From a virus (lineage: Duplodnaviria; Heunggongvirae; Uroviricota; Caudoviricetes), in the IMG/VR virus record IMGVR_UViG_2563366920_000004: 40,422 nucleotides of DNA; one strand, written 5' to 3'. This document shows, in pieces, positions 1 through 26,838 of the stretch; position 1 is the stretch's first letter, and the number at the start of each line of letters is the position of its first letter. The position numbers and the translations under genes are program-made. The notes beneath the pieces are model-generated. The model saw only the letters and a list, made by a program, of their open reading frames with translations. It was not told the DNA's origin and made no database searches.

Positions 1-174
1 ATGCGAAAACGACACCGATTTAACAGTCGCATGACCCGTATCGTACTGCTCATCAGCTTTATCTTCTTCTTTGGCCGTTTTATCTACTCGTCCGTCGGTG
101 CCTGGCAGCACCATCAGAGCAAAAAAGAAGCTCAGCAATCCACACTCTCCGTCGAATCACCGGTACAACGTTAG
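1..174 (+). CDS. small membrane protein (57 aa), below the ORF-track size cutoff
   Basis: ATG at window position 1, open frame to TAG at 172-174; basic N-terminus followed by one hydrophobic helix (IVLLISFIFFFGRFIY). No RBS visible because the upstream region is outside the window. Confidence 0.3.
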   Translation: MRKRHRFNSRMTRIVLLISFIFFFGRFIYSSVGAWQHHQSKKEAQQSTLSVESPVQR

Positions 175-484
175 CGGTTACCTTCTCCACTCTCACAGAA
201 CATAACGGCACCTCGCTGTCGGATGCTTTTGCTCTTTGAAATTATCAAAGCGGCAGATATTCTTTCATCTTAAATTTTACGTCTTTGTTCTGACTGAAAT
301 TCATCCTGTTCGGCTGCGAAATAAATACATCATTAATACATATGTTGTGATGATGTATTTTTATAAATTATTTCCCACATGAATTTTAATAAATTTAATC
401 TATTCCTTTATACGCAATACATTTACTTTCCTCTTTTGATGATCTTAAATGTCTTATTTTTCGTAATGTGTATAACAAGGAATA

Positions 485-1003
485 GTGATGAAATTTAAAA
501 AATGTCTTCTGCCCGTGGCAATGTTAGCGTCATTCACTCTGGCAGGATGCCAGTCAAATGCTGATGATCATGCCGCCGATGTTTATCAAACCGATCAACT
601 GAATACCAAACAAGAAACTAAAACCGTTAATATTATTTCCATTCTTCCCGCAAAAGTTGCCGTAGACAACGCCCAAAATAAACGGAACGCACAAGCCTTC
701 GGCGCGCTTATTGGCGCTGTCGCTGGCGGTGTTATCGGCCACAACGTCGGGTCTGGCAGCAATTCCGGAACGACGGCAGGTGCAGTTGGCGGCGGAGCTG
801 TAGGCGCGGCAGCGGGTTCTATGGTGAATGATAAAACCTTAGTGGAAGGTGTTTCTTTAACATATAAGGAAGGCACCAAAGTGTATACCTCCACCCAGGT
901 GGGTAAAGAGTGCCAGTTTACGACAGGTTTAGCCGTTGTTATTACCACGACGTATAACGAAACGCGTATTCAGCCAAATACCAAATGTCCTGAAAAGAGC
1001 TAA
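485..1003 (+). CDS. lipoprotein with glycine-zipper domain (YcfJ/SlyB-like outer-membrane lipoprotein family)
   Basis: Signal peptide ending in lipobox LAGC; Gly/Ala-rich stretch GALIGAVAGGVIGHNVG...GAVGGGAVGAAAG typical of glycine-zipper lipoproteins; AAGGAA RBS before ATG; AT-rich upstream region. Confidence 0.6.
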   Translation: MMKFKKCLLPVAMLASFTLAGCQSNADDHAADVYQTDQLNTKQETKTVNIISILPAKVAVDNAQNKRNAQAFGALIGAVAGGVIGHNVGSGSNSGTTAGAVGGGAVGAAAGSMVNDKTLVEGVSLTYKEGTKVYTSTQVGKECQFTTGLAVVITTTYNETRIQPNTKCPEKS

Positions 1004-1018
1004 TAATCAGGAGGAGTC

Positions 1019-1558
1019 ATGAAGAAAGTTTTTCTTTGCGCCATCTTAGCCTCCTTAAGCTATCCGGCTATCGCCTCATCATTGCAGGATCAACTCTCGG
1101 CTGTCGCAGAAGCGGAACAGCAAGGTAAAAATGAAGAGCAAAGGCAGCATGACGAATGGGTCGCGGAGCGCAACAGGGAAATCCAGCAAGAGAAGCAACG
1201 TCGCGCAAACGCCCAGGCCGCGGCTAATAAAAGAGCGGCAACGGCAGCAGCGAATAAGAAAGCTCGTCAGGATAAACTGGACGCCGAAGCCACTGCGGAC
1301 AAAAAACGCGATCAAAGTTATGAAGATGAGCTACGTAGCTTAGAGATTCAGAAACAAAAACTGGCGCTGGCGAAAGAAGAAGCCCGCGTTAAGCGCGAAA
1401 ACGAATTTATCGATCAGGAACTGAAGCACAAAGCTGCGCAAACCGATGTGGTGCAATCTGAAGCTGACGCAAACAGAAATATGACTGAAGGCGGTCGCGA
1501 TCTGATGAAAAGCGTGGGTAAAGCAGAAGAGAATAAATCAGATAGCTGGTTTAACTAA
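1019..1558 (+). CDS. secreted, highly charged coiled-coil protein of unknown function
   Basis: Sec-type signal peptide (MKKVFLCAILASLSYPAIASS); remainder rich in K/E/Q/A/R; AGGAGG RBS 6 nt upstream; starts 16 bp after the preceding gene (operon-like). Confidence 0.5.
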   Translation: MKKVFLCAILASLSYPAIASSLQDQLSAVAEAEQQGKNEEQRQHDEWVAERNREIQQEKQRRANAQAAANKRAATAAANKKARQDKLDAEATADKKRDQSYEDELRSLEIQKQKLALAKEEARVKRENEFIDQELKHKAAQTDVVQSEADANRNMTEGGRDLMKSVGKAEENKSDSWFN

Positions 1559-1596
1559 ACGATGTTAGTAACTTCAAACCTATAATTCTTTAGGAT

Positions 1597-1630
1597 AAAA
1601 AACCCTCTGTAGTAACAGAGGGTTTTGTTC
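1597..1630. terminator. bidirectional intrinsic terminator between convergent genes
   Basis: AACCCTCTGT-AGTA-ACAGAGGGTT hairpin flanked by an A-run upstream and T-run downstream; lies between the 1019..1558 (+) and 1776..2258 (-) gene ends. Confidence 0.6.
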
Positions 1631-1775
1631 ATTCATAGTGCAGGGTCAAATCATTCCCACTCAATTATTTACGACAATCATAACCAATTGAGTGATAACA
1701 TTTTTCCAAAGTTCAACTTTTCCCGTACCGTTTTATATACCGTCACCGGAAATCAGTGCCATGAAAAATACCATG

Positions 1776-2258
1776 CTATCTGGTCAGGGTGTCGTACTGT
1801 TTTTCGCAGACTCTTCCGGCTTCGGCTGCCCGGTCAGCATACTCTGCCAGTTGTCTGTTTCTCTCGAGAGATTTGCTGAGCACGTCGGCAAGCAAAACTC
1901 CGGTGTCTGCGGCTGACGACCCAGCGCCGACAATGGCGTTATACTGCCTGAGCTGCTCACGGATGGCAACGAGCTGTTGCTGCAACCTACCAGCGCGAGC
2001 GGCAGCATCAAGAGCATCGCTGCGCGCCTGATCGATCCTCTGCTGCGCTTCACGTTCATTGGTCGCTTTCTCCTGTTCGTAGTACTGACGAACTTTTTCT
2101 TCTTCGGCTTTGCGGTCTTCTTCCGCCTGCGCATACCCGGCATCGTACTGGCGACTGCCGTGTGCATTCCAGGCTACAACTCCTGATATGACCAGAACAG
2201 CAAGCATCGCCATGATAACCAACTGTTTCCAGTATGCTTTTGCGAATGCCCAGATCAT
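1776..2258 (-). CDS. Rz-like i-spanin (inner-membrane spanin subunit)
   Basis: N-terminal transmembrane helix then coiled-coil Q/E/R/A-rich periplasmic domain; start overlaps endolysin stop by 4 nt; last gene of the lysis cassette. Confidence 0.6.
1784..2059 (-). CDS. Rz1-like o-spanin lipoprotein embedded out of frame within Rz
   Basis: Alternate frame inside the Rz gene encodes a signal peptide with lipobox ([16 protein letters not shown]) followed by a Pro-rich short protein; start taken at internal Met-37 of the track ORF 1784..2167 (Met-51 at 2017 is an alternative). Confidence 0.5.
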   Translation of the reverse strand: MNVKRSRGSIRRAAMLLMLPLALVGCSNSSLPSVSSSGSITPLSALGRQPQTPEFCLPTCSANLSRETDNWQSMLTGQPKPEESAKNSTTP

Positions 2259-2884
2259 ACCGCCAGCACCTTACTGGCAGTGATGTATCGCGCGCGCCGG
2301 TCATCAATGCCGTTCCGGCCACCATTGATAAGCAGAGTTACACGTGCAATATCTCCGGTATACTTCATGCAGCCTTTGCTGGCGAAGAACCACGCCGCGC
2401 TACGAGCCGCATATTCGTCCTGCGCCAGCAGTTCAGGATTCTCCAGCAGGTCAACCTTCAGACCGTTTCCGCAATCACGATAGTTATTCAAACCGGTAAT
2501 CTGGATAAGTCCGCGCCCTCGGTAATTCCAGCCATCACCAGGGGCATTGTTCCCCATGCGTTTGCTGTACACCAGATTGGCAATCGCTCTCTGGCGCTCA
2601 GGTGGCAATGGTGGTTCGCCTGCGCGTCGCCCCAATGCGTTGGCCTGTCCCTGAGTGAGACGCCCAGCCCGAACAAAGTTAGCCAGTCCGCTGACGCTGT
2701 AGTTGAAATTCTCCTGCAACCGGGTGAAGCCTCCAGACTCATGCCCGACCTGAGCAATAAACATAGCCTGATCTTCTGGTTTGCTGATACCAAACTCTTT
2801 CATCGCAGAAGTTATATGCGAGAACCAGCGTGCGGCCAGTGCCTCGCTGATACCAGCAGCTCGCTGGAATTGTTTAATCTCCAT
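2255..2884 (-). CDS. endolysin, glycoside hydrolase family 19 (chitinase-like lysozyme)
   Basis: Start set at internal Met (MEIKQFQ...) of track ORF 2255..3049; motifs [10 protein letters not shown] and [12 protein letters not shown] typical of GH19 phage endolysins; overlaps the upstream holin-like gene. Confidence 0.85.
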
Positions 2885-3182
2885 GTTTAGACCTCGATAC
2901 TTTGAAAATTTGAACGACGTTACCGCGCGTTTTAATAACCGCAGCAAGCATGACAGCGTTGATAATGACCTCGGATAAATCCACAGCCATTGGCGTACGT
3001 AACCAGATTGCATAGGCGACTCGAACAGGAATACTGGCCGCAGCAACAATCAGGAAATAAGCAAGCCATCCTCCCCACCTTCGGTGTTGAGAGCCGTTAC
3101 GCCGGAATGTGACAACGCGAATTGCTATGCCAGTGCAAATAACTGCATTGGTGATAAGCAAAAAAAACTCATGCGTTACCAT
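2874..3182 (-). CDS. holin/antiholin-like small membrane protein
   Basis: 102 aa with 2-3 hydrophobic helices and charged C-terminus; located between a holin-like gene and the endolysin, overlapping both. Confidence 0.5.
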
Positions 3183-3573
3183 CGTCTTTTCTCCCCGGAA
3201 TTAACTCGCGTGGATTATCGGAACGGTGATAGAGCCATATACCAATACGCACAGCGACAATTGCTGACACGAATGCGCCTGCAGAGAAAACAATCCCTTT
3301 TTCAAAAGAGTCCTGCGTGATGGTAGGGATCAGGCTAGCTATGCCGATAAGAATTGATGCTGCTGGTTTGTAAAAGAGAAGGCCGCAAAGAAAGCTGAGC
3401 ATCGACAGGAGCACCCGGCGACGGATGGGGTACTCTACTGCAGAGGTAACAAAAATCACCGCCCCAGCCAAAGCCCCTAAAGCAACCTCCGGAGGGACAC
3501 CTGCAATAACCGCAGCAAGAGAACCAAAACTAAGCAACTGATTTAATTGCTCACTTGTTACTTGAGCAGACAT
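3169..3573 (-). CDS. holin-like membrane protein
   Basis: 134 aa, several hydrophobic helices, charged C-terminal tail; AGGAG RBS 6 nt upstream; first gene of lysis cassette. Confidence 0.55.
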   Translation of the reverse strand: MSAQVTSEQLNQLLSFGSLAAVIAGVPPEVALGALAGAVIFVTSAVEYPIRRRVLLSMLSFLCGLLFYKPAASILIGIASLIPTITQDSFEKGIVFSAGAFVSAIVAVRIGIWLYHRSDNPRELIPGRKDDGNA

Positions 3574-3879
3574 ACTTTCTCCTGTTTACTATCTATAAGC
3601 CAGTCAATTATTGATGACTAAACCCGCATAGTAAACCATATATGAATCATTATTGTTCCATATCATATATCTCAATAAAAGTACTAATGATTTTACAGAA
3701 CGAGCCAGCAGAGTGGGGGCAGTTGTACAGGAACCATAGACTTAATTTTGTATTTAATAATGCTATGGTGTAATAAACCTGAACATGTATTTAAAATACG
3801 TACTGATTCATGATAGAATTCAAAGATAACTTTTCACCAACTCCGTTTTTGATACCCGCAAAATATTGCGGGCTTTTTT

Positions 3880-6800
3880 TTAACGTTCTTCCAGAGACTG
3901 AATCCGCTCTTTTATCTTATCCATTTCTCTGCGCTGCCATGCTGCCTCGATATAGAATAAGAGATCAGGTCTGACCCCCCATCTAGATCCTGCTGGCGTT
4001 ATTTCAACGCGCTCAATGATGTCTTCCATTACCATCACTGGATTATCATCCTCATCAACAATGATGCTCCCGTCATTATCAGTCAGCGGAATTTCCCTTT
4101 GGCCAGTAATGACGTCATCATATACTGCGGGATAATCGTCATAGCAAAGAAAGGCATAGCGGCATGTTGTGCTTTCTTCTTCCATGAGTCCGTGAGAAAT
4201 AAGAACATCACGAAGTTGCTGCGCGATTACACCATGATGTATCCTCGCCCCTTCTTCTCCCTTTATAGCGACAGCGTTCAGCCATTTATAAGCGATATAC
4301 CTGACGTCACCCCAGGCATCCAGCAATGCTTCGTCAGGAGAGACCGGCTCTGTCTTTAATGTTCCGTCACTGGTAACCACAGGATTGGAGCCAAGATAAA
4401 CTGTCGAGAACCTGTTTCCCGGACCACCAAGAGCATTTACATTATCAAGATAAGGTTTAACATCTCCGTTCTCAAAAAGATGTTCGAGTGCGTTATATAC
4501 CGCGCGACGTGGAGTACTGCTTCTGGAACCATGCAACGTTATCATTGCACCATCTGCTGAAGACGTTGTTTCACCGCCGCTAACGATTAATCTCTGAGCG
4601 GTAACATCATCAGACGGTACTTTCTTCGCAATAATGGCGTAATTACCCTCAAGTTTGACTTCCGCGCGAACTTGTCCTGATGTACCTGCATGGACAGTCA
4701 GTGACTGGACGGCAACATCATCTGTGAAATCAACGGGTACAGGAACCGTCCTCACGCCTGACGTCGACATAAAAGTAGGAAGCGTTCTGTTAGGAGTGGC
4801 TCCGTAGACAAAATCCCTTGAAACAAATTCTTCCTGTTTAATTTTCACCCTGAAACAATACAAATCAGCCGGGTGACCATCGTGAACATAAGGATATTTT
4901 CTGTTGTTATCCCCTATGCTCCATGGGTTTAGAAAGTCTTCCCCACCGAAAATGTAGTACAGCCAGTTGTCTTTGATACAAACTGAACCAACACCAACCG
5001 CAGAGTTAACTATTCCGCCCTGATAAATCTGATCAGTAACATTAACCCACTCTACATTATCCAGACTCCACTCATTGACGTTAACTCTGGTCATAAATGT
5101 TCTTGGATAGTTTCCTGCATAACGGTTATCAGGTTCTCCTCCTTCCCACTCACCAAATGCGCGCTCACTGCCAAAAATAATCAGCTCATCGCCAACTTTG
5201 GCAAAAGGAAGGTTTGAGTGATGAACATTATTTGGGAAGCGAAGAGAATTCCATGATGTACCTAAATCAGAGCTTCTGTGCAATGAACTACCGGGTTGAG
5301 TACTTAATGTCCCCCTGGTCGTCAGATACAGAATGCCATCATAATATTTTACACATGGCTCAGATGCATTCGCCTCATATTCTGCAGGTATGCGTCTGCG
5401 AACAAAGCTACCAGGAGAACCGAAAGCATCAGAGAAATAGAGTATCCCAAGCTCGCGTGGACCAATATCACCATTATGGTAGCCAACAGCAAAACTGTTA
5501 TCGCTAATCGTCGCAAAACTGTGAATCTCAGTAACAGGAGTGCTTCCGTCAACAAAAGAAGGAATAGTTCCAAGACTGGTTTTTCTCCATGGTGACGAGT
5601 GAAATGATGTACCAAAACTCCAGTATCTACCCTCGTTATTCTGATCCACATCCTGGGTATTTTGCGTCGTAACTGTAAAAGTATTTTTATCAATAACAGT
5701 AGTCACCGTCATATTCCCGGTAACACCTGTAACACCAGAGTTTGAGAAGTTGACAAAATCACCAGCAAATAATCCGTGATCAGTAATGCGAATATAAGCG
5801 ACTTGCTGATTTGCTGCTTTCGTTATACCACCATAAACGCGAAGGCTGCGACTCATTGGGCGATCCCACAACTCTGCAACCTGCAGTTTATTTCCGCTCA
5901 CGGTCCGCGTCTCAATTACAGCAAAAAGGCGATTTCTGACAACCCCCATACTCATGCAGTGATAGTTAACTGTGGGATAGTTTTCATGTAAATCTGTAAG
6001 CCATTCCGGCGTTGTCCAGGTCTTCCCGTCATCTCCTGAGCGAACCCATGCAACATGGAGGTTATTTACACCATGGCGGTCTCCAGCCATAAAAGGCGCA
6101 TAGATGACATTGTCATATACAAACGTTTTATCCTGCGTCCAGGCGTTGTACCACGGTGTATCTGTAATTTTAAATAACTCTCCCTGGATAAAATCTTCAG
6201 AAGCATAAAAAAGAGGCTGACCCGGTATTCTCTCAAATAAAAAACGAGCATTTTTAAATCGGCTGACATCCGGAAGAGTTGATACTTTAAAAGTAAGCCC
6301 TAATCCGTCAATTTTATAACCTGGAGATGAGGCTTCAAGGCACGCGCTTATTGCAGTGGAATCGTCATTTATACCATCACCAACAGCTCCAAAATCTTTG
6401 GGGCTAATAGCATCACGCATTTTATCCTGGAACGTTCGGTACACAGCCCCAGAACCATACTGAATAAACCAACCAAAACCACCAACAACCCCGGCGATTG
6501 CAGCATCGACATAATTACGCATTGAGCGATTATTTACAGCGTCCTGTTCAAGTGATGGATCTGCAAGGTTAGAAATTTTGTTTTGCTTTGCATCGTAATA
6601 TTTTGCAAGCAAAGATGGTTTCATCAATGCACGTCTGAACCACCCAAAACATTGCTGGATCAGCATCGTCAGGTAGTCAAAAGCATCTTCATGCACTTCG
6701 GGGAAAAATTTTCCCTGATTGCGAAGGTCTGTCTCCTGCACTACATCAAGCACACGATCTATCGTAATTCGCCATCCAGTAGCAAGCGGCGACGGAAGAA

Positions 6801-6999
6801 CCACAGAACCGCCACTATAAGTTCCCGCCCCAGTTACCGTATAACCGGTATCCAGTACTAGTTCTGTTACGTTACCGTTAAGGTCAGACACCTGAACAAC
6901 CAGGTCGGATTTTTTGAAAATACGGAAGGTATACGGAAATGATGTCGTAACGCCGTTACCAGTGTATTCGTTGTGGTCAACTTCGGTTGAGACCGTCAT
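3880..6999 (-). CDS. tailspike / tail fiber with T7 gp17-like N-terminal adaptor domain, sialidase-like Asp-box motifs and C-terminal intramolecular chaperone (S74-like) domain; putative endosialidase
   Basis: N-terminal ~120 aa follow the T7 tail-fiber N-domain pattern; two Asp-box-like motifs (RSGDDGKTW, SSDLGTSW); C-terminal ~150 aa resemble self-cleaving chaperone domains (TSDGTLK ... IHHGVIAQQL). Confidence 0.75.
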   Translation of the reverse strand: MTVSTEVDHNEYTGNGVTTSFPYTFRIFKKSDLVVQVSDLNGNVTELVLDTGYTVTGAGTYSGGSVVLPSPLATGWRITIDRVLDVVQETDLRNQGKFFPEVHEDAFDYLTMLIQQCFGWFRRALMKPSLLAKYYDAKQNKISNLADPSLEQDAVNNRSMRNYVDAAIAGVVGGFGWFIQYGSGAVYRTFQDKMRDAISPKDFGAVGDGINDDSTAISACLEASSPGYKIDGLGLTFKVSTLPDVSRFKNARFLFERIPGQPLFYASEDFIQGELFKITDTPWYNAWTQDKTFVYDNVIYAPFMAGDRHGVNNLHVAWVRSGDDGKTWTTPEWLTDLHENYPTVNYHCMSMGVVRNRLFAVIETRTVSGNKLQVAELWDRPMSRSLRVYGGITKAANQQVAYIRITDHGLFAGDFVNFSNSGVTGVTGNMTVTTVIDKNTFTVTTQNTQDVDQNNEGRYWSFGTSFHSSPWRKTSLGTIPSFVDGSTPVTEIHSFATISDNSFAVGYHNGDIGPRELGILYFSDAFGSPGSFVRRRIPAEYEANASEPCVKYYDGILYLTTRGTLSTQPGSSLHRSSDLGTSWNSLRFPNNVHHSNLPFAKVGDELIIFGSERAFGEWEGGEPDNRYAGNYPRTFMTRVNVNEWSLDNVEWVNVTDQIYQGGIVNSAVGVGSVCIKDNWLYYIFGGEDFLNPWSIGDNNRKYPYVHDGHPADLYCFRVKIKQEEFVSRDFVYGATPNRTLPTFMSTSGVRTVPVPVDFTDDVAVQSLTVHAGTSGQVRAEVKLEGNYAIIAKKVPSDDVTAQRLIVSGGETTSSADGAMITLHGSRSSTPRRAVYNALEHLFENGDVKPYLDNVNALGGPGNRFSTVYLGSNPVVTSDGTLKTEPVSPDEALLDAWGDVRYIAYKWLNAVAIKGEEGARIHHGVIAQQLRDVLISHGLMEEESTTCRYAFLCYDDYPAVYDDVITGQREIPLTDNDGSIIVDEDDNPVMVMEDIIERVEITPAGSRWGVRPDLLFYIEAAWQRREMDKIKERIQSLEER

Positions 7000-7102
7000 G
7001 TTAAATCTCCAGATAGTCGCAGCACCCGTTGCGCCGCATATCTGGTTATTCTATTACCTGAAAAACCACATATGGATAGAAAGACTGTGAATACGAATAG
7101 AT

Positions 7103-7119
7103 ATTACCTTTCGGGTAAT
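7103..7119. promoter_or_regulatory. operator-like palindrome ATTACC-TTTCG-GGTAAT
   Basis: Perfect TTACC-N5-GGTAA inverted repeat in the divergent region between the tailspike start and the SOS-box gene. Confidence 0.6.
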
Positions 7120-7155
7120 TTGCAAAACGTGCTGGATAGCAAACAAATTATTTGA

Positions 7156-7175
7156 TACTGTATAAATATACAGTT
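7156..7175. promoter_or_regulatory. LexA (SOS) box TACTGTATAAATATACAGTT
   Basis: CTGT-N8-ACAG core with an AT-rich spacer, close to the E. coli LexA consensus; about 20 bp upstream of the ATG at 7195. Confidence 0.7.
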
Positions 7176-7194
7176 ATTGCATGGAGAAGATAAG

Positions 7195-7452
7195 ATGCAG
7201 CAGTATCACTATCCACTGGAAGACGGATTTACCGAAAGGATTCACACGCCGGGAGGCGTCAGATCACTGGTGGAGGGATCGCACTTGATGAAATTACTCC
7301 GGGATCTCGATAAGGATGGATTTAATGTCGATGGCCCACTTGCCGAACTGACTGCACTGATTAACTACGTCACCAGCTCACAGATGTCTATGCAGGATCT
7401 GCAAACACATCTCGACTATTGTGCCGAACAATTACGAAAACAAACCACATAA
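7195..7452 (+). CDS. small antirepressor-like protein (paralog of the Bro-N antirepressor C-terminal domain)
   Basis: ATG at 7195 with GGAG RBS 8 nt upstream (track ORF begins at a TTG at 7177); C-terminus LMKLLRDLDKDGFNVDGPLAELTALINYVTSSQMSMQDLQTHLDY aligns with the C-terminus of 8598..9290. Confidence 0.65.
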   Translation: MQQYHYPLEDGFTERIHTPGGVRSLVEGSHLMKLLRDLDKDGFNVDGPLAELTALINYVTSSQMSMQDLQTHLDYCAEQLRKQTT

Positions 7453-7490
7453 AGAAAAGGCCGCTCTAGCGGCCTATCGTTTCGCTTTGT
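7451..7490. terminator. bidirectional intrinsic terminator
   Basis: GGCCGC-TCTA-GCGGCC hairpin with A-run upstream and T-rich tract downstream, between convergent genes 7195..7452 (+) and 7474..8202 (-). Confidence 0.55.
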
Positions 7491-8202
7491 GCTCGTCCCA
7501 GCACGTTTTGCACCATGCCATTAAGCCGTCCGCATTTTGATTATTAGGGTAAAAGCTAGTTCGTTTTCTGCGGACATTACAAATTGGGCACCACTTCATA
7601 TGGCGTGTATTCTTTGGGCCATCGAGACACCTTGCACACCACTTAGTCAATCCATCTGGATTTTTTGACGATTTCCTGAATTTTTCATATGGAAGGTTTA
7701 TTCTGCATCGCAAGCACTGCTTGCTACCACTTGAAACTCTGTTAGCTGATTCTTCTTTTGGCGGCGATACAGAAGGTATTCTTGCTGGCTCTGATACTGC
7801 CTGAGGTGCTTTTTTAGATGACTGAGACGATATGTCATCACCAGGGAATCTTCCATGATATGCCGGACGCGTTGACACTCCGGGTGGAAGCTCAGCTGTA
7901 AACGGCTTTGGCTGAATCAGTTGCCTCTCTTTTGCTAACTCCTGCTGTTTATAATATGTCTGGATTACCGCGCTATCATAAGCAGGAGGTACGGAAATAT
8001 TAGGCGCATTATCTCCCGTTTTTTGAAACTGAGTGGAGGTGTGTTCTATCACCTGTGTACGATTAATCGTTATCTCCCCATCTTCAGTCTTTATCGTTTT
8101 GTTATGATTAACGACCGTACGATCAGAGATCTTAGTCTTGTTCTGGTTGATAACGTAAATAATCACCGCAACCACACCAACAACTACCCAGAAAACTTCC
8201 AT
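7474..8202 (-). CDS. membrane-anchored protein with C-terminal tandem CxxC zinc-ribbon repeats, unknown function
   Basis: N-terminal transmembrane helix (VFWVVVGVVAVIIYVI), long Pro/Ser-rich linker, C-terminal duplicated motif C-x2-C ... DGL-x2-WC-x2-C; GAGGAAAGG RBS before ATG. Confidence 0.6.
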   Translation of the reverse strand: MEVFWVVVGVVAVIIYVINQNKTKISDRTVVNHNKTIKTEDGEITINRTQVIEHTSTQFQKTGDNAPNISVPPAYDSAVIQTYYKQQELAKERQLIQPKPFTAELPPGVSTRPAYHGRFPGDDISSQSSKKAPQAVSEPARIPSVSPPKEESANRVSSGSKQCLRCRINLPYEKFRKSSKNPDGLTKWCARCLDGPKNTRHMKWCPICNVRRKRTSFYPNNQNADGLMAWCKTCWDEHKAKR

Positions 8203-26761: not shown

Positions 26762-26838
26762 GTGGCATTAGCTCAGTTGGACAGAGCAACCGCCTTCTAA
26801 GCGGTTGGTCGCAGGTTCGAATCCTGCATGCCACGCCA
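26762..26838 (+). tRNA. tRNA-Arg (anticodon UCU), phage-encoded
   Basis: Cloverleaf traced by hand: 7-bp acceptor stem GTGGCAT/ATGCCAC, D-arm GCTC/GAGC, anticodon stem ACCGC/GCGGT with loop CTTCTAA, T-arm GCAGG-TTCGAAT-CCTGC, discriminator G and encoded CCA. Confidence 0.85.

Follow-up and report, generated by a model that had tools for sequence, protein, structure and literature searches.

The tailspike gene in the 40,422-nt stretch of DNA analyzed here (hereafter the window; IMG/VR record IMGVR_UViG_2563366920_000004) is a mosaic, in which a Uetakevirus (phiV10/epsilon15-like) anchor of roughly 200 residues is joined to a 2.4-kb endosialidase cassette. We consider it about 95% probable that its product is the only receptor-binding tailspike of the phage, a temperate podovirus of the epsilon15/phiV10 type (Uetakevirus) whose hosts are K1-encapsulated E. 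coli. What the sequence shows directly is which domains are present, that key residues are conserved, that the protein closely matches the assayed CUS-3 enzyme and ZX5 ORF7, and that the gene is of mosaic origin; the activity, autocleavage and tail attachment of the window tailspike itself are predicted from its sequence.

The tailspike open reading frame is intact, occupies window positions 3880-6999 on the minus strand with its ATG at 6997-6999, and specifies a protein of 1039 aa. All of the tailspike elements named by a first-pass annotation, which had been made from the sequence alone, are present in this frame; its observation is confirmed, and its interpretation is supported with the adjustments described below. 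In E. coli genomes, RefSeq labels this 3120-nt gene as encoding an endosialidase-domain protein; no NCBIfam model matched the tailspike. On the 3′ side of the gene, a gap of 280 nt (3599-3879) contains no open reading frame and has no homologue in CUS-3 or in any of the further Uetakeviruses used for comparison. The small open reading frames near the gene gave no defence-system match in PADLOC.

Features of the tailspike gene and its surroundings (window positions; aa, residues of the 1039-aa tailspike)
Feature	Position	Strand	Basis or remark
Segment common to other Uetakeviruses	6404-7474	-	96%; upstream region plus gene nt 1-596
Ribosome-binding site GGAG	7007-7010	-	7 nt 5′ of ATG; read from sequence
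Complete tailspike gene	3880-6999	-	1039 codons plus stop; ORF list; length equals ZX5 ORF7
Virion-anchor module, Uetakevirus type, aa 1-204	6388-6999	-	92% to EC.W1-9, phiv142-3
Anchor beta-sandwich, aa 8-87	6739-6978	-	followed by helical neck
CUS-3 siaK1-like cassette, 2393 nt	3909-6301	-	99.5% identity; gene nt 699-3091
Endosialidase N-terminal extension, aa 205-271	6187-6387	-	Pfam PF12218, E 5.9e-32
Six-bladed catalytic beta-propeller, aa 272-721	4837-6186	-	Pfam PF12217, E 1.4e-233
Catalytic codons	H309 6073-6075, R515 5455-5457, E547 5359-5361, R562 5314-5316, R613 5161-5163	-	endoNF mapping
Asp-box 1 SGDDGKTW, aa 321-328	6016-6039	-	opposite endoNF SGDDGQTW
Beta-barrel inserted in propeller, aa 383-465	5605-5853	-	Pfam PF12195, E 3.2e-46
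Asp-box 2 SSDLGTSW, aa 576-583	5251-5274	-	opposite endoNF SRDIGQTW
Stalk (triple beta-helix/tail-spike domain), aa 722-876	4372-4836	-	Pfam PF12219, E 4.5e-78
Autocleavage site TSDGTLK, aa 876-882	4354-4374	-	scissile T876/S877, general base K882
Intramolecular chaperone (Peptidase S74), aa 877-1039	3883-4371	-	PF13884; 3gw6; 3gud
G+C-rich hairpin	3855-3872		8 nt past tailspike stop codon; T-run on + strand only

The mosaic structure is evident when the gene is set against the two phage lineages that share its parts. Elsewhere, the window shares 96-98% identity with Uetakevirus genomes. In contrast, the cassette matches siaK1 of CUS-3, a P22-like Lederbergvirus (CP000711), so closely that residues ~237-1020, a span that takes in the propeller with its barrel, the stalk and the greater part of the chaperone, are essentially identical to SiaK1. 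Windowed identities and the DNA junctions at 6404 and 6301 place the switch between donor lineages at aa ~200-236, within the endosialidase N-terminal extension. The ends of the two proteins differ: CUS-3 carries a P22 gp9-type head-binding domain (its aa 1-133) where the window tailspike has the Uetakevirus anchor, and the last ~18 residues are unlike. A neuO O-acetyltransferase gene adjoins the endosialidase gene in CUS-3, whereas neither neuO nor an AAGACTC repeat is found beside the tailspike gene or anywhere in the window.

As a complete protein, the tailspike is already known. ORF7 of the Uetakevirus vB_EcoP_ZX5 (MW722083) has the same length and is 99.5% identical in amino acids and 99.2% in nucleotides, the window tailspike being distinguished from it by five substitutions (K29R, L150F, S368R, R826G and I970M). 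Both genes lie upstream of a holin/endolysin cassette, while window positions 7453 to about 10070, upstream of the tailspike gene, and 1-1648 at the left end are not shared with ZX5. The same three domains as here were given for ORF7 in 2022, in a paper that does not mention CUS-3 (PMC9782041). With this near-identical protein described, and with the gene labeled by RefSeq in dozens of genomes, the finding is an ordinary one of little discovery value. Its practical value lies in annotation: the gene marks its carrier as a temperate phage specific for K1, from which the host's capsule type can be predicted. Work on crystal structures of the K1F enzyme has covered the endosialidase family in general, from its architecture and the way it catalyzes to the chaperone that cuts itself off.

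The first-pass annotation had described the tailspike as endosialidase-like and proposed a search with sialidase and S74 profiles as a check. All four endosialidase domains and Peptidase_S74 were returned in canonical order, each above its Pfam gathering score: the propeller scored 774.9 bits (cut-off 24) over the full length of the model (1-367), and lower scores were given by the tail-spike domain (261.3 bits), the beta-barrel (155.7 bits) and the N-terminal extension (109.6 bits). These matches are far beyond chance. Among PDB sequences searched with phmmer, endoNF (1v0e/3gvl) matched aa 205-876 at E=0 and the phi92 endosialidase (4hiz) matched at 1e-271. Identity to the crystallized endoNF, gp17 of phage K1F (PDB 1V0E, 3GVL, 3GW6), is 63% over aa 196-1039, and the two proteins agree in the order of their five domains, their catalytic and autocleavage residues and their Asp-boxes. 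They differ in a 7-residue insertion in the window tailspike at about aa 482-488, and K1F is itself a lytic T7-like phage. A pectate-lyase-like match at aa 201-221 (E 0.035) reflects merely a shared 'DFGA.GDG..DD' capping motif, and placement in another depolymerase family was rejected.

The five endoNF residues H350, R549, E581, R596 and R647, whose roles at the active site have been described (PMC12632334), correspond to H309, R515, E547, R562 and R613 of the tailspike and are all conserved. The motifs RSGDDGKTW (aa 320-328, window 6016-6042) and SSDLGTSW, which had been noted as a sialidase propeller signature, both lie opposite Asp-boxes of endoNF; they account for the exactly two copies of S-x-D-x-G-x-x-[WFY] in the protein, each inside the endoNF-aligned stretch. 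The central domain is a GH58-type endosialidase, a more specific assignment than sialidase-like, and by analogy the tailspike is likely to cleave alpha-2,8-polysialic acid. In endoNF the beta-barrel is a polysialic-acid binding domain, and Q853 is a contact of the stalk with the polymer. Because this position is M819 in the window tailspike, as it likewise is in CUS-3, the stalk may bind the polymer differently from that of endoNF, or the enzyme may be processive to a different degree.

The C-terminal region had been likened to the chaperone of K1 endosialidases and T5 tail fibres, which is borne out in kind, though not in size: the domain released would comprise 163 residues (877-1039) and not ~150. 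Peptidase_S74 (PF13884) matches aa 877-937 directly after PF12219 (E 1.7e-10; 41.4 bits, cut-off 22). The endoNF chaperone (3gw6) is matched at 7e-94 by the full tailspike and at 8.3e-48 by aa 877-1039 alone, covering aa 878-1038, and the GA-1 neck appendage (3gud) matches the domain at E 2e-10. The motif TSDGTLK, previously proposed to hold the cleavage site, contains T876/S877 and K882, which together with the upstream R863 (in GNRF) are the equivalents of endoNF T910/S911, K916 and R897; all are conserved. Furthermore, crystallized mature endoNF chains stop exactly opposite T876, the end of the stalk and the mature C-terminus. The chaperone of T5 pb1 (4UW7/4UW8) likewise combines Peptidase_S74, Thr/Ser...Lys(+5) and an upstream Arg, and the cleavage mechanism has been described for both pb1 and K1F (PMC4690869). 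At 18% identity to endoNF (PMC4690869), pb1 is too distant from the tailspike to be picked up when PDB sequences were searched with phmmer. The chaperone is predicted to leave after the trimer has folded.

At the other end of the protein, the anchor belongs to the Uetakevirus type, defined as the first ~205 residues of the phiV10 receptor-binding protein (PMC10408124), as it combines high N-terminal identity with a Uetakevirus genome context. It is 92% identical to the EC.W1-9 and phiv142-3 tail fibres over aa 1-227 and 69% identical to phiV10 over aa 1-165. The nearest solved relative is the fibre of the podovirus Carin-1 (Dpo31/Carin-1 tail fibre, E 9e-36 by phmmer of PDB sequences), whose D1 domain sits at the virion base in cryo-EM (PMC13317679).

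The first-pass annotation had instead assigned the N-terminal ~120 residues to the T7 gp17 pattern. This comparison is supported at the level of the predicted fold only, and the module extends to about 200 residues. An AlphaFold model, for which the alignment was made from relatives found in a large protein search, has a pLDDT of about 90 over aa 10-80; past aa ~87 the confidence is low, in line with a coiled-coil trimer having been modeled as a single chain. When the model was searched with Foldseek, the N-terminal domains of Carin-1, LME-1, PhiM1 and T7 gp17 were matched, and all of the top 20 matches were phage tail or fibre assemblies, with T7 gp17 N-terminal chains among the best (7ey9, E 6e-4; 7boz, E 1.2e-3; 7ey7, rmsd 1.8 Å over 79 columns; probability 1.0). 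Overall, the T7 gp17 matches range from E 6e-4 to 1e-2 with an rmsd of 1.8-2.9 Å over 79-86 columns, at just 15-20% identity. The structure prediction that had been suggested as a check thus points to a T7 gp17-type fold shared with podovirus fibre anchors, and with the T7 anchor itself (PF03906; 7EY9, 7BOZ) over the first ~80-120 residues.

At the level of sequence, the T7 likeness is weak. PF03906 (Phage_T7_tail) scored 16.4 bits on the anchor, below its gathering threshold of 25.2. It was matched weakly by all 25 of the anchor family members scanned (best 2.2e-6), and no precomputed PF03906 assignment was present among the 120 relatives listed in the large protein search. That search returned close relatives only (58% identity or higher, for the most part fragments of genes) and no bridge to T7. 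In a PDB profile search with the anchor alignment, the matches included Carin-1, PhiM1 gp47 and further fibres, and T7 gp17 was absent. Direct comparisons were unusable as proof, whether by BLASTP of aa 1-204 against T7 gp17 (a 22-aa match, E 0.043) or by hhalign of the anchor family against the T7 and K1F gp17 N-termini (E 0.026, probability 1.9%). A weak profile alignment is nevertheless co-linear, pairing aa 16-155 with T7 15-149, and a motif, 'DA..N.I.NL.DP...DA', is common to both proteins at an equal position. K1F has a genuine T7 gp17-type domain at its N-terminus, which shows no detectable sequence similarity to the window tailspike; the alignment with K1F starts at aa 196.

These elements suggest how the tailspike may work. 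Three chains would fold into a trimer, with the chaperone nucleating folding of the triple beta-helix stalk. The chaperone would then cut itself off between T876 and S877, with S877 activated by K882 and R863 contributed by a neighboring chain. The mature spike (aa 1-876) would join the tail via its N-terminal beta-sandwich, and the propeller would cut alpha-2,8-polysialic acid at the site formed by E547, R562, R613, H309 and R515. The barrel and stalk would hold the polymer while it is cleaved, and the virion could in this way tunnel across the K1 capsule.

Decay is frequent in prophage genes, and the window does resemble an integrated prophage, with other Uetakevirus records starting or ending at window 1649 and positions 1-1648 being extra; moreover, the cassette is truncated or split by an IS3-family element in a few E. 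coli genomes. It is nonetheless very improbable that the gene is part of a decayed remnant, its product inactive or no longer put into virions. We rejected this because the reading frame is full length, without frameshift or stop, and because the tailspike of ZX5, which forms plaques, differs from its product in just 5 residues out of 1039. The catalytic and cleavage residues are all intact, as are nearby structural, lysis and packaging genes, which share 96-98% identity with their counterparts in isolated phages.

Phage ZX5 plaques on and lysogenizes E. coli YO1, an O87:H52:K1 strain (PMC9782041). Among the 5,426 complete genomes of E. coli, 72 contain the full-length gene, including O1:K1:H7, O2:K1:H7 and APEC O1, and the cassette is carried by 194 E. 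coli genomes. The gene is found in classical K1 strains such as IHE3034, APEC O1 and IAI39. K1 E. coli is thus supported as the host, in keeping with the earlier suggestion of a polysialic-acid capsule such as K1 as the target. These observations, and a cassette almost identical to that of CUS-3, for which endo-alpha-sialidase activity is on record from a direct assay, argue against a drifted specificity in which K1 is not the true or only target and the protein acts on O-acetylated, alpha-2,9 or mixed-linkage K92 polymer, or binds without cleaving. What speaks for drift is that the stalk is just 56% identical to endoNF and the beta-barrel 68%, that one stalk contact is replaced, that neuO is missing from the window, unlike CUS-3, and that stalk and barrel residues tune discrimination among K1 strains in a mutational scan of K1F (PMC12632334). 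On balance we regard drift as marginally less probable even than decay, and we retain a K1-directed tailspike.

The near-identity of the cassette in two otherwise different phages suggests a recent exchange. We favor, with some reservation, the view that the 2.4-kb cassette moved very recently between unrelated temperate podoviruses of K1 E. coli, and it may still be homogenized by recombination. The lineages involved would be CUS-3-type Lederbergvirus and Uetakevirus, recombining as co-resident prophages. Exchange of receptor-binding domains between these same two genera has already been documented for O-antigen tailspikes (PMC10408124), and the gene provides a clean case of a receptor-binding cassette that, in extra-intestinal pathogenic E. 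coli, epsilon15-like prophages have in common with P22-like ones. Both prophage types occur together in the single genomes of IHE3034, APEC O18, EC69 and MS20659.

The single long open reading frame (ORF) assigned to the tailspike by the first-pass annotation was confirmed, and all three peptides quoted from it were located in the translation. Five Pfam domains, four endosialidase models and Peptidase_S74, occur in the tailspike in canonical order, every one far above its gathering score. A search of solved structures ranked endosialidases highest: 1v0e and 3gvl of endoNF, the gp17 enzyme of coliphage K1F, matched aa 205-876 with E = 0, and 4hiz of phage phi92 matched with E 1e-271. A scripted alignment gave 63% identity to full-length K1F gp17 across aa 196-1039. 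All five endoNF residues H350, R549, E581, R596, and R647 are conserved in the tailspike as H309, R515, E547, R562, and R613, and a study that applied deep mutational scanning to K1F gp17 lists the same five as catalytic and intolerant of substitution (PMC12632334). The two Asp-box-like motifs noticed in the central part are present and align opposite their endoNF counterparts. Together, the Pfam endosialidase domains, the similarity to endoNF, and the conserved catalytic residues support the prediction of an endosialidase-like tailspike. The protein has M819 at the position equivalent to endoNF Q853, a polysialic-acid contact of the stalk.

Features of the tailspike gene and of the rest of the window
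Feature	Residues (aa)	Window (strand)	Evidence or nearest relative
Tailspike gene	1-1039	3880-6999 (minus)	ORF list
GGAG, 7 nt upstream of tailspike ATG		(minus)	read from sequence
G+C-rich hairpin, 8 nt past tailspike stop codon
End_N_terminal	205-271		Pfam, E 5.9e-32
End_beta_propel	272-721		Pfam, E 1.4e-233
End_beta_barrel, inserted	383-465		Pfam, E 3.2e-46
End_tail_spike	722-876		Pfam, E 4.5e-78
Peptidase_S74	877-937		Pfam, E 1.7e-10
First Asp-box-like motif	320-328	6016-6042 (minus)
Second Asp-box-like motif	576-583	5251-5274 (minus)
TSDGTLK	876-882	4354-4374 (minus)
Upstream region and gene nt 1-596		6404-7474	phiv142-3, EC.W1-9 (Uetakevirus), 96%
Gene nt 699-3091		3909-6301	siaK1 of P22-like prophage CUS-3, 99.5%
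Downstream lysis genes		3000-3598	phiv142-3, EC.W1-9 (Uetakevirus), 91%
Tailspike stop to lysis cassette, 280 nt		3599-3879	AT-rich
KDFGAVGDGINDD	201-221	6337-6399	weak pectate-lyase-like Pfam match
Gly-zipper/TraT-like lipoprotein ORF		485-1003
DUF5384 ORF		1019-1558
242-aa ORF		7474-8202 (minus)	weak Stc1 Pfam match
tRNA-Arg (anticodon TCT)		26762-26838 (plus)

The proposed C-terminal intramolecular chaperone was likewise borne out, both by the Peptidase_S74 domain and by the endoNF stalk-plus-chaperone structure 3gw6, which matched the tailspike with E 7e-94 and its final 163 aa alone with E 8e-48. The same 163 aa matched the chaperone of the GA-1 neck appendage (3gud, E 2e-10). In the alignment, crystallized mature endoNF chains terminate exactly opposite tailspike T876, S877-D-G-T-L-K882 lies opposite endoNF S911...K916, and R863 opposite R897. 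In T5 pb1, by a shared mechanism, a Thr|Ser bond is cut once the Ser is activated by a Lys five residues downstream; an Arg of the neighboring chain participates, and cleavage needs a correctly folded trimer (PMC4690869). TSDGTLK, the site originally suggested, is therefore the right candidate, and the domain released is predicted to be 163 aa long.

The earlier comparison of the N-terminus with T7 gp17 held at the level of fold but not of sequence. The gp17-type model PF03906 scored 16.4 bits, under its cut-off of 25.2; BLASTP paired T7 gp17 with the anchor over one 22-aa motif that occupies the same place in both (E 0.043); and hhalign placed a 25-member family alignment co-linear with the T7 and K1F gp17 N-termini at very low probability. 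In favor of a shared fold, PF03906 matched all 25 family members, if weakly (best 2.2e-6). The nearest solved relative is the tail fiber of marine podovirus Carin-1 (8ck1/28lx, E 9e-36); in cryo-EM, residues 8-87 of that fiber form the D1 beta-sandwich at the virion base (PMC13317679). An AlphaFold model from the family alignment gave a confident beta-sandwich at aa ~8-87 (pLDDT about 90) and a low-confidence helical neck, and its top Foldseek matches in the PDB were podovirus fiber anchors only (Carin-1, LME-1, PhiM1, T7 gp17 N-terminal, Kp7, Kp9, and P-SCSP1u), with T7 represented by 7ey9 (6e-4), 7boz (1.2e-3), and 7ey7 (rmsd 1.8 Å over 79 columns). Given this fold-level support and the weak sequence support, the anchor is probably a remote homolog of the gp17 anchor that works alike, but by Pfam criteria it falls outside PF03906. 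It should be labeled the Uetakevirus anchor domain, delimited as about the first 205 aa (PMC10408124).

By sequence, the window belongs to a temperate podovirus of the epsilon15/phiV10-like kind, with structural, lysis, replication, and integrase genes 96-98% identical to those of EC.W1-9, TL-2011b, phiv142-3, phiV10, and vB_EcoP_ZX5. The tailspike gene has a mosaic DNA sequence, with a catalytic cassette closest to the CUS-3 endosialidase gene. Neither donor was matched in the DNA comparison by ~100 nt around the junction, or by the gene's final 29 nt plus the intergenic region. The intergenic region lacks ORFs and is homologous neither to CUS-3 nor to the other compared Uetakeviruses. CUS-3 carries the capsule O-acetyltransferase gene neuO downstream of its endosialidase gene, whereas neither neuO nor its AAGACTC heptanucleotide repeat was found throughout the window. 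The motif KDFGAVGDGINDD, which opens the endosialidase N-terminal extension at the position of the recombination junction, recurs at about 60% conservation in two unrelated receptor-binding domains, those of EC.W1-9 ('eliminase') and phiv142-3, and may be a common crossover point.

This tailspike endosialidase is already known. Five of its 1039 residues are different in ORF7, the spike of the plaque-forming K1 phage vB_EcoP_ZX5 and a protein described in 2022 as having a T7-like tail fiber N-terminus, an endosialidase-like middle, and an endosialidase intramolecular chaperone at the C-terminus (PMC9782041). The ZX5 host, E. coli YO1, is O87:H52:K1 (PMC9782041). Among 5,426 complete E. coli genomes, the full-length gene is present in 72, annotated as 'endosialidase catalytic beta-propeller domain-containing protein'; carriers include O1:K1:H7 and O2:K1:H7 strains, APEC O1, APEC O18, and a cerebrospinal-fluid isolate. 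The catalytic cassette occurs in 194 of these genomes at 263 places (e.g. IHE3034, S88, UTI89, IAI39, ATCC 11775). The predicted targeting of the K1 capsule is thus supported by the ZX5 host serotype and by carriage in named K1 strains of E. coli.

The intactness of the ORF and its near-identity to a functional phage's spike make a decayed remnant unlikely. A shift in enzyme specificity is also unlikely, since the hosts are K1 and the cassette is 99.5% identical to CUS-3 siaK1, whose product is annotated with direct-assay evidence for endo-alpha-sialidase activity. In the favored reading, the protein would fold as a trimer with assistance from aa 877-1039, be cleaved at T876|S877, dock on the tail via aa 1-~200, and depolymerize alpha-2,8-polysialic acid, so reaching the outer membrane.

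The one mildly new aspect is the presence of this cassette in two unrelated prophage types, sometimes within one genome, which fits the documented exchange of receptor-binding domains between Lederberg- and Uetakeviruses (PMC10408124). Several K1 genomes carry two endosialidase genes, one of CUS-3 type, P22-like at the N-terminus, and one of Uetakevirus type resembling that of the window: NC_017628.1 (IHE3034, the two near 2.718 Mb and 2.885 Mb), NZ_CP006830.1 (APEC O18), NZ_CM128670.1 (EC69), and NZ_CP082073.1 (MS20659). The paired cassettes are >99% identical, and recombination between co-resident prophages is possible.

Elsewhere, the lipoprotein and DUF5384 ORFs lie at the left end, in a segment (1-1648) common among phage records to TL-2011b only. 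Several other Uetakevirus records begin or stop exactly at window 1649, a position suggestive of an attachment-site boundary, with 1-1648 as host flank or moron block. The tRNA-Arg gene lies inside the phage, with portal and terminase regions on either side. The 242-aa ORF, which adjoins the tailspike region on its upstream side, encodes a protein with a hydrophobic stretch near the N-terminus and a pair of Cys-rich repeats (C..C ... WC..C) toward the C-terminus; PADLOC and NCBIfam returned nothing for it, and ZX5 lacks the block from 7453 to about 10070. It also occurs, as a hypothetical protein, in E. coli FDAARGOS_1301. In that genome, at NZ_CP070111.1 4863470-4880589, the integrase and early genes come immediately after a DUF2514 gene. 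This is the gene order of a circular phage; a prophage divided by an attachment site lying between the DUF2514 gene and the integrase would be expected to show another order. Because the query was found at three places in this record, the copy may be a tandem one or one integrated differently.
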